Virus record (IMG/VR): IMGVR_UViG_3300042691_021876
Coordinates: 42,535 to 106,534 of that record
Direction: 5' to 3' (one strand)
DNA: 64,000 nucleotides
Source: a virus
This document shows positions 54,001-57,000 of this stretch, in pieces (position 1 is the first letter of the stretch; the number at the start of each line of letters is the position of its first letter). Position numbers: made by a program.

Positions 54001-57000
54001 AAGCATCATCGTCAAGACCCACAAGACCAATCTTAGGAAATACGTTTTTTTCTACCCACTTTGCAGTTGGCATTACGTCTTCTTGATTAATAGGCTGTGC
54101 GTCTTCAATAGAATTTCCACTCTCATTAATAAACTGTTCAAATAGTTTTATGTACTTCATAATTATTTAATATTCTTTTAATCACCGGTTCCTTTATATA
54201 TTAACTTAATTGATTTTGCTGGTATATTCTCAAACGTAATTACACGATGGTCTTTTAAATTAAAATTTGGATCCACATACCACTTATTCTTAAGATTAGA
54301 TGTATCTATTTGATATATGTCATCATCATATGTAGAATCCCACCAATCTTTTTTATTATCACTGTTTACTGCAAATATAACTTTACCATTAATATTTGTA
54401 TTTGATAGCCAAGCTTCACTTTTACCTTGCACAATTAATCCTTCTTTAGCAATCTTATCTCTAAAAAGAGGGTTTGATGTGTGGTAAAGAAATTTGTTTG
54501 GCTTTACTTCCACTAAGTGTGAATTTCCACTCTCATTAATAAACTGTTCAAATAACTTTATGTACTTCATAATTATTCTTTATCTTTACGTATTTCTTCA
54601 GCTTTTTTCATAGCCCAATCAACGCCTTCATCTCCACCCCAAAGTAACCAAGCAACATGGCCTTTATCTTTCCACGGAGTATCTTTGTTATCTGCAGATA
54701 TCTTAGAGTTTTTTCTATGACGATTAAATTGTGCCATTCTTGAAACTACATCAGCAGAAATAGGTTCTTTCTTTGCTAATTGATTTGCTCTTTGCCAACC
54801 TACCGGTGTACCAGCTGTGATTTCATCACGACCGTATTTTTCTCTCCAGTCAAGTGCTTTTTGTGCATTCTTTGATGCAGCTGCTGGATAATCAGTGTAT
54901 GATTCAGCTTCATTAATATCATTAATGAAATCTTCAAAAAGTTTTATGTGCTTCATTGTTTCTTTTTTGTTTTAAATTCATCTGATATTACTACAATACA
55001 GAAGATAGCCATTATAGCTACAAAAAAATATAATGGATGTTGAGGATCAGGGTCCATAACCAAAAATCATTTTAAATGTTTTCGTCCTCATAAGTAGAGC
55101 TCAGATCCTGAGCAAATACTCTGATACGTTGCTGAGTGGCATCATCCACAATTACAACATAATTTTTTCCAAGTTCTACAACTCTGCCGGTTGACGTTCT
55201 GCCAAGGCCAGGTTGCACATATTCTATTATGTTTCCTACCTTAATGGATTTCATATTAGGATTACCTCCTCTTTCTGAAATAAATGATTCAAATGTTGCA
55301 AAGTCCATTAGCGATTTTGGAATTTTGTGATGTTTTGGTTATGTATTTTGCCATTGTATATATCTATAGAATTTATGATGGTCGGGTTGCTTTCCCATCT
55401 GTTTGGGTCTATGATATCCTCTAAATGTGGAACCAAGGCAGCAGAAATTTCTCGAGATGCAGCGTTCCATAAATATGTAGGTGTATGATCTACCGAATAG
55501 TATTGAATACCTCTATCCAGTTTTATAATTGGATTTTCAAATGTAGTAGGTTCAGCAAAATAAAATCCCATTCCTTTATCACAAGATATGTCAATGATTG
55601 CACAATTTCTACGTAACTGAGATAAACCGCTTTCATCTTTAATAAACATAAGAGGTTTATTTACATCTTGTAAAACTCCGTTAAAGATAATGTGTGCAGA
55701 GTAAATGTCTTCCCAAATATCATCATCATTAAAGTTCTTGTACCAAACATCAGGATTTTTATCAGCAACAAGATGTGTAGGTCTTTGTGTATAAACGGTT
55801 ATGTTATTAAAACCTCTACCTTGTAAAGCATAAATTGCTCCTTTACTTACAGAGCCAAACCCAAAGATAACCACTTTCTTACGTTCACCGTAATGCCCGT
55901 CAAGACCTGCTAATTGCAAGTAATGTAAAACACCAGCATAACCAGCTAATTCATTGTTACGATAAAACGTATGTAACTTAGAATTAGTAGTCACGTGATT
56001 CATTTCTTCCCATGCAAGAAGTGTAAGTTTCTTTTCAATCGCAACATCTGCAATGTCTCTTTGCTGAACTGCGTGAGTCCAACCGCAAAGAGTAGCGCCG
56101 TCTTTCATTTGCTTTAAATCTTCAGCAAGTGGTTTTGGCAATATGATGATATCGCATTTCTTAAAAAGATCTTCGCGGCTAGCAAACTTACAACCCATGG
56201 TTTCAAGTTGCATATCGGAATATCCATAGTCTATTCCGTATCCTTTTTCAAATAAGAGTTCTTTAAGTATTTTTGCACCTAATCTTTCAATGTGTGCTGG
56301 GTGAATTGGAATACGTTTTTCGTTTTCCTTTAATGATGTTTTGAATATTCCAGTGATCATAAATTATACAATGTTAAAAAAGTAGCGATATCCATTTGCT
56401 ACATTTTCGTTAGTGATTTTTTCATAGTCCATAGGCCATTGAGAAGAAAGTATTTCTTTTTTGTATTTAGGCCAGTAATTCTTGTGACCATTTACAACAT
56501 ACTTTTTGTAAATGTCTTCTAAAAATGCATCAGGTAATTTTTCTCCGTAAAAGTCTTCATAGATAGCGCGATAAACTTCGCACATCTTAACACTACCTAA
56601 TCCCATAGCGGATGAAGTTTCCATTACCCAAAGTTTTCCTTTTTTATCTTTAACCACATCAAGTGACCAAAGATTCAGGTCAAGATCTTTTTTAATGTCT
56701 ACACAAATATCAGCAAGTTCTTTTAAGAACTTTTTATCAACTTTGTTTAAATCTTGATATACATAAGTGAATTTAATCTTTTCATCAGCTTTCTTTGTCT
56801 TGATTGATTTGTTATCTTCAATCGTTGGCACACGCTCATTAATTGCAATGATTTTGCTCTGGCAAAAAACTACTCGATATTCACGGTCAAAATCAATGAA
56901 TTGACAAAATAAGTCAAATTTCTCTTTGCTTTTTTCCAAGTCTTCAGCTGTATCAAATTTTTCAATTCCTATACCGCTATGACCGTTTTTAATTTTAGCA

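Follow-up and report, generated by a model that had tools for sequence, protein, structure and literature searches.

A near-identical coding leader at the starts of two unrelated phage genes is best explained by re-tagging of a resident gene

How do two genes with unrelated products come to start with almost the same DNA? The question is raised by a locus in the window, the 64,000-nt stretch of DNA analyzed here, which is the end of a 106.5-kb linear fragment of an uncultured phage. Repeat search and pairwise alignment confirmed the near-duplication first noticed here: positions 54111-54167 and 54521-54577 match at 55/57 nucleotides. Read on the coding (minus) strand, a copy opens with 7 nt of spacer; the other 50 of the 57 nt, the ATG and the 47 nt after it, are coding and correspond to codons 1-16 plus two bases of codon 17. 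The two mismatches lie side by side, at the third base of Lys5 and the first base of Leu6, and neither changes the amino acid; outside the 57 nt identity falls at once to the random level on both sides. The proteins concerned, a 130-aa protein with an ADP-ribosyltransferase (ART) fold and a 294-aa protein, have the N-terminus MKYIKLFEQFINESGNS in common. BLASTP aligned their residues 1-17 (17/17) and found no other similarity, in agreement with the original observation that the genes are unrelated past the leader. All genes in the repeat region lie on the minus strand, and the features discussed are collected in Table 1.

Table 1. Positions in the window of the repeat copies, the neighbouring genes and the recombinase gene
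Feature	Position	Strand	Remarks
ART-side repeat copy	54521..54577	-	at the start of the ART-fold gene; matches the 294-side copy at 55/57
294-side repeat copy	54111..54167	-	start of the 294-aa gene
130-aa ART-fold cargo gene	54178..54570	-	17-aa leader and 113-aa body
Spacer from ART stop to 294-aa ATG, 17 nt	54161..54177	-	last 7 nt inside the repeat
294-aa leader-tagged gene	53276..54160	-	conserved backbone gene of the array
Upstream 127-aa leader-tagged gene	54573..54956	-	phrog_2859
Downstream conserved 577-aa gene	51492..53225	-	synteny anchor with all relatives
RecA/UvsX-like recombinase	30801..32054	-	PF00154, 67 bits, above cut-off

Both genes belong to an array of at least 16 minus-strand genes in the window whose leader, ∼13 residues long, is of the type M-K-[HY]-[IV]-K-x-[FY]-E-x-F-[IL]-N-E. 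A strict motif search returned at least 13 leader-bearing starts, and the figure of 16 was reached by adding three starts from the first reading of the sequence; the 13-16 tagged genes have unrelated bodies, and the spacers are A/T-rich throughout the array. The leaders are like the capsid-targeting sequence (CTS) of T4, MKTYQEFIAE, in following the pattern K-T-[FY]-E-x-F-[IL]-x-E and ending in Glu; the core leader of both repeat genes ends in I-N-E, a CTS-like (L/I)-x-E protease-site pattern. A gp21-type protease domain is found in relatives: Peptidase_S77, the T4 gp21 prohead-protease family, scored above the cut-off (47-50 bits) in the two more complete relatives that hold loci L013 and L001, and 23.9 bits, below the cut-off of 27, in the phage's own fragment. 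It is because of this resemblance to the T4 CTS and the prohead protease in relatives that we speak of a capsid address; by analogy with T4, the leader would direct packaging into the capsid and would be cut off after its final Glu.

The phage is large, since the 106.5-kb fragment has an estimated CheckV completeness of 37%. The record encodes a DNA polymerase, a ribonucleotide reductase, an NAD-dependent ligase and its own RecA/UvsX-like recombinase, for which the PF00154 match lies at G000:C1:73737-74546 (window 31203-32012). Searches of cultured phages returned no relative of the ART gene and, with the 577-aa gene, only distant Lak-megaphage matches. Unlike T4, this large-phage lineage is therefore an uncultured one without a cultured relative.

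The 130-aa protein matched phrog_5470 (RNA 2'-phosphotransferase) with an E value of 1.8e-5 over profile positions 89-180 of 183, matched no Pfam family even at E = 5, and returned nothing in a phmmer search of the PDB. Its AlphaFold model (pLDDT 79.6) has a disordered leader (residues 1-16), a hint at most that the protein would be packaged, trimmed of its leader and injected, and a Foldseek search with this model placed KptA/Tpt1 structures in the top 14 positions (best E 1.5e-4, probability 1.0, TM 0.55), with ART toxins lower in the list; PHROGs and the fold search were the only methods to recognize the gene. On the strength of the fold search and the PHROG match, it is justified to describe the body as an ADP-ribosyltransferase fold resembling the NAD-binding lobe of Tpt1/KptA. 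Identification as a true Tpt1 was considered and rejected: the N-terminal RNA-binding lobe is missing, and the 113-aa body compares with ∼180 aa for the two-lobed enzyme. We use "ART-fold" rather than "Tpt1" because this lobe is missing and no Pfam model matched. T4 likewise has an ART-fold enzyme, Alt, among its tagged cargo.

For the 294-aa protein no Pfam match was found, and the alignment shows an invariant G-S...D-x-D motif (G57, S58, D70, D72). When its model (pLDDT 75.9) was searched with Foldseek, Pol mu, TdT and Pol lambda matched weakly (E 4e-3 to 2e-2, TM 0.3), and the protein probably has a Pol-beta-type nucleotidyltransferase fold. Homologs of the upstream 127-aa gene are longer, with 169 aa in locus L015 and 174 aa in L016, and contain an additional ∼45-aa module behind the leader.

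We compared the two starts with the rest of the leader family. The 119 other leader pairs formed by the 16 leader-bearing starts in the window had a mean identity of 31.0/57 (sd 6.1) and a maximum of 41; the best same-locus pair across 18 related loci reached 46/57; and neighbouring leaders were not generally more alike than non-neighbours (permutation p = 0.47). Given these family scores, the ceiling in the relatives and the lack of a neighbour effect, the 54111/54521 pair is a real and singular outlier. As no leader pair inside the 18 related loci exceeds 46/57, the event behind it is rare and not a standing feature of such arrays. The adjacent pair at 60099 and 60682 had been put forward as a second example. 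Its first eight codons are indeed similar (22/24, tied with two other pairs), but over the full frame the pair scores 32/57, the family average, and is ordinary. A search of viral contigs with the exact leader DNA found no near-identical relatives, and promoter- or terminator-like sites in positions 53000-55500 were not above the shuffled expectation.

Orthologs of the 294-aa gene were found in 13 related loci, all 13 of which keep the order of the 294-aa gene followed by the 577-aa and 113-aa genes; between the 294-aa and 577-aa genes there is a small tagged gene in some loci and there are two larger ORFs in L012 and L013. The gene directly upstream of the 294-aa gene varies by lineage and is leader-tagged in most relatives. 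The same 17-residue leader or near variants of it precede the 294-aa protein in L010, L011 and L015-L020. At the DNA level, the 294-gene leader matches that of the window at only 41-45/57 positions in the five viral-contig relatives compared (L010-L013), and orthologs that encode the identical 17 residues still differ at 12/57 positions.

The same arrangement of genes as in the window (78 aa, 127-like, ART, 294, 577) occurs in L016, a metagenome contig from another sample whose 294-aa protein is 92% identical to that of the window. The L016 ART gene begins with MRYVKLFEDFLSESNNL, a leader peptide unlike that of the window. At the nucleotide level, the window agrees with L016 at 87.3% of positions in the body of the 127-like gene and 86.7% in the ART body, but at only 34/51 (66.7%) in the ART leader; the two leaders of L016 itself (ART and 294) have a 15-nt exact run in common. 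The comparison clearly points to replacement of the ART gene's leader alone in one lineage, the body and both flanks being orthologous to those of L016. The original prediction that leader DNA acts as a recombination point is supported to this extent, since the leader was exchanged and the sequences around it were not.

Two observations indicate that the replaced copy is the ART leader of the window. All 294-gene orthologs carry the window's leader type, and at codons 2 and 4 the two window copies have states in common that are absent from the 294-gene leaders of L015 and L016. The copy at 54111-54167 is, to judge from the orthologs, the native leader of the 294-aa gene. Each window copy has one private synonymous change. 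Within the 7 spacer bases of the ART-side copy lies the stop codon of the upstream 127-aa gene; since the conserved Glu-stop end of that gene falls there, these bases look native. The 294-side spacer of the window differs from that of L016, and some of the tract may therefore have been transferred in the opposite direction.

We propose that a recent, short, non-reciprocal transfer probably supplied the resident ART gene with a copy of the 294-aa gene's native leader. The ART gene would already have been in place with its own diverged leader, and the transfer would have taken place in the lineage of the window by gene conversion or by crossover within the leader, after which each copy would have gained one synonymous change. 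The direct repeats now bracket a 410-bp leader-plus-cargo unit that could be lost by homologous recombination. The phage's own homologous recombination system presumably made the exchange, the RecA/UvsX-like recombinase being the likely enzyme. The breakpoints would have been placed by leader homology rather than by selection for whole-gene insertions and deletions; breakpoints near leaders are weak evidence alone, because under selection whole-gene insertions and deletions also fall at gene starts. The event may instead have been a crossover with an L015-like genome.

L015, a 2.2-kb metagenome contig with a 294-aa protein 96% identical to that of the window, has no ART gene, and the unit is thus polymorphic for presence and absence among close relatives. 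At its junction the 127-like gene ends in a stop codon that shares bases with the 294-aa ATG, GAATAATG; at the corresponding place the window reads GAATAATTATG and then continues into the ART unit. An allele lacking exactly the 410-bp unit had been anticipated; L015 does lack the ART unit, but by alignment the missing segment is 410+3 nt, the junction being 3 nt shorter than the simple crossover product of the window's two copies. A tree computed from the 294-aa gene without its leader joins the window and L015 as sister taxa (support 99/97) and leaves the ART-bearing L016 outside, so that loss in the L015 lineage is most parsimonious. A deletion mediated by leader homology would be consistent with these data; a leader-by-leader crossover is unproven, because the missing unit is not exactly 410 nt.

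These two relatives bear directly on the reading originally given to the repeat, namely that a new gene acquires its translation start and capsid address in one step. In this reading the repeat is an insertion footprint, left when a leader-plus-ART cassette was recently captured at the 294-gene leader, bringing start and capsid tag together. Such a capture would account for direct repeats that enclose exactly one leader-plus-cargo unit, for the lack of an ART gene upstream of the 294-aa gene in L015 and at least eight other relatives, and for the presence of ART bodies in unrelated phages. We nevertheless consider recent capture unlikely. In L016 the same place, with the same genes on either side, is taken by an ART gene with 87% body identity and a different leader, and the ART gene therefore predates the repeat; the ART-less L015 pairs with the window on the 294-gene tree, with the ART-bearing L016 outside; and ART homologs almost always already bear a leader. 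One-step acquisition of start and address by a new gene thus does not hold for the ART gene, which is already resident in L016 with a leader of its own. Re-tagging of a resident gene, and not capture of a new one, is the best-supported interpretation of the repeat from the sequences compared.

Two identical tandem leaders would likewise be expected if the 5' end of the 294-aa gene had been duplicated in tandem and the ART gene had then replaced the duplicated body. This scheme needs two events where one suffices, no 294-gene sequence is found past codon 17 in the ART gene, and the L016 ART gene is in place with its own leader; we regard it as very improbable. Still harder to credit is that DNA-level selection kept the same optimal leader and start in both genes and that no recombination took place. 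All leaders of the array are related and an A/T-rich spacer is found everywhere, but the synonymous sites of the 294-gene leader drift normally, as is seen from the 12 differences between orthologs with identical residues, so that DNA-level selection cannot explain 55/57; furthermore, the other 119 pairs reach 41/57 at most and the orthologous ART leader of L016 is a different peptide. Least probable of all, though the record is a metagenome assembly, is that misassembly of a short repeat produced the 410-bp unit or one of its copies, given that the copies differ at two positions with both ORFs intact, that L016 shows the same gene order in another sample, and that the exact 127-aa, 130-aa and 294-aa proteins each occur on 6 contigs, the longest of 161 kb.

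The ART family supplies a broader view of leader replacement. The ART body has more than 280 homologs, in which a conserved core is preceded by very different leaders, and some leader is present in nearly every phage that has the gene. The ART gene of a distant 294-kb phage starts with the leader type typical of that phage, as do the adjacent genes. Closer to the window, three further leaders are found on ART homologs with body identities of at least 94% (P0121-P0123, compared at the protein level only). The P0121 leader matches the type of the upstream gene of L016, and the other two are mosaics of L016-type and 294-type leaders (both at the protein level). Across these homologs leader identity is, by protein comparison, uncoupled from body identity, which agrees with the exchange of leader and cargo that had been predicted for relatives. 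P0002 has a 294-type leader on an ART body only 89% identical (again at the protein level), so the conversion may be of greater age than it seems, or may have happened more than once.

We speculated that leader gene conversion serves for address matching, in that mobile cargo is re-tagged with the resident phage's leader from a neighbouring gene, a role we regard as possible but doubtful. If this were so, the array would be an integrase-free gene-capture system with a translated "attachment site" that supplies translation start, packaging signal and protease site together. The window would then show one such event shortly after its occurrence, and the long-term record would be the ART family, with its single body and lineage-specific leaders.

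Several features of the locus have counterparts in T-even phages, where diverse internal proteins share only the CTS leader (PMC3012670, PMC12373910). The T-even internal-protein loci (IPI, IPII, IPIII and Alt; Mullaney & Black 1996; Repoila et al. 1994) are considered here as far as they are covered in PMC3012670, PMC12373910 and PMC2839356. As in those loci, unrelated proteins have only a short N-terminal leader in common, and the number, order and identity of the members vary between relatives. T4 has three internal proteins against at least 16 tagged genes here. The repeated elements of the T-even loci are described in PMC2839356 as promoter-based with stem-loops, whereas the repeat here is a coding leader plus 7 nt.

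A second parallel is the PeSL-mediated modular shuffling reported for RB49 and phi1 (Arbiol et al. 2010, PMC2839356). As in PeSL shuffling and in the Botstein-Campbell "linker" model, single-gene cassettes in hyperplastic regions have short conserved repeats on either side; between close relatives, cassettes are inserted, deleted or replaced, and recombination by the phage itself at short homologies is held responsible for the exchange. In contrast to PeSLs, which are non-coding, with a promoter and stem-loop that give each cassette its own transcription, the cassettes here are promoterless and the "linker" is translated. Short homologies also suffice in T4-type phages, which according to PMC2839356, citing Singer 1982, recombine at patches of <50 bp. 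T4 has further been found to recombine at 6-10-bp microhomologies, with loss of ipIII as one outcome (Srikant et al. 2022, PMC9391042). The present case is like these events in its direct repeats, which in a recombination-proficient phage can lead to loss or amplification of the segment between them, and unlike them in that the homology is not a chance match of 6-10 bp but a functional, family-wide leader of ∼40-57 nt. The locus thus differs in detail from the T-even internal-protein loci and from PeSL shuffling and lies within the known kind.

Proteins packed in the phage head and injected are first-line tools of counter-defence or takeover, and how the set of injected proteins is renewed is only partly understood, even for T4. 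Here one cargo gene is found in three states, with an overwritten tag (window versus L016), missing (L015) and bearing a neighbour's tag (P0121), which suggests that the DNA of the tag, not only its peptide, shapes the evolution of the cargo set. The concept goes back decades, to a proposal for T-even phages, and the locus contributes one more example and finer detail rather than a new principle. The T4 internal-protein pattern is extended to uncultured large phages, with ART-fold and probable nucleotidyltransferase-fold enzymes among the cargo and many more tagged genes.

Elsewhere in the array, the 193-aa gene at 60682 and a 186-aa gene of L010 have only a 72-nt extended leader in common (51/72), the flanks being random. 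The pair fits a cargo swap behind a leader, but peptide-level selection would account for it just as well, and it was not counted as evidence.

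The 127-aa leader-tagged gene directly upstream of the ART-fold gene lacks a basic module of ∼45 residues, which in the homologs from two relatives (L015, 169 aa, and L016, 174 aa) lies directly behind the leader, the short N-terminal tag that resembles the T4 capsid-targeting sequence. The deleted stretch lies between the leader's end and an internal I-[DN]-E motif, and its loss has left two side-by-side copies of the 8-mer ATTAATGA. The cluster of this gene also includes two 250-aa variants, P0143 and P0145, in which the N terminus of the homolog of the 550-aa gene is fused to a 127-like body. 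Such a fusion implies a multi-kb deletion with endpoints away from the leaders, and therefore the leader is not used by every rearrangement in the cargo array.

In the PAP2-domain cargo gene of the window, the conserved body is joined straight onto the leader, whereas the homolog in the relative L010 carries an additional N-terminal module of ∼100 aa that has a leader of its own. Homology between the two proteins begins immediately behind an L-x-E motif in both (F-L-N-E in the window, L-L-D-E in L010). The genes that occupy the slot just upstream have only a 24-residue extended leader in common (51/72 nt), with no relationship between their bodies or between their flanks. L010 also encodes a 317-aa mosaic protein (L010:10129-11082) that aligns at 59 to 69% identity with internal stretches of two distinct cargo proteins from the window (49479-50291 and 50319-51026).

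Coordinates of features in the window and in other records
Feature	Window position	Strand	Other position	Remark
127-aa gene	54573-54956	minus		
Alanine-dehydrogenase/PNT-like gene and weak ATP-grasp-like gene	within 55308-57524			inside cargo array
PAP2-domain cargo gene	59221-60099		L010:2562-3713	homolog in L010
Gene just upstream of PAP2 gene	60101-60682		L010:2024-2584	counterpart in L010
144-aa ORF			L014:1441-1875	G000:C1:6501-6839 in the phage's own record, outside window

In another phage (L003:5992-6765), the ART-fold body has a GNAT acetyltransferase domain fused at its C terminus (Pfam E 5.8e-7), and the N terminus of this protein differs from the leader type of the window. The gene directly follows a 595-aa ORF, and the locus also contains a very acidic 462-aa ORF; we suspect that both ORFs are head genes.

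Among the other genes of the array, the alanine-dehydrogenase/PNT-like gene encodes 350 aa (Pfam E 2.5e-16), and the ATP-grasp-like gene, a weak assignment, shows a leader-like motif at 57464, ∼20 codons inside the listed ORF. The 144-aa ORF matches Peptidase_S77, the T4 gp21-type prohead protease family, at a sub-threshold 23.9 bits; in relatives, this domain lies within ORFs of 629 to 643 aa.
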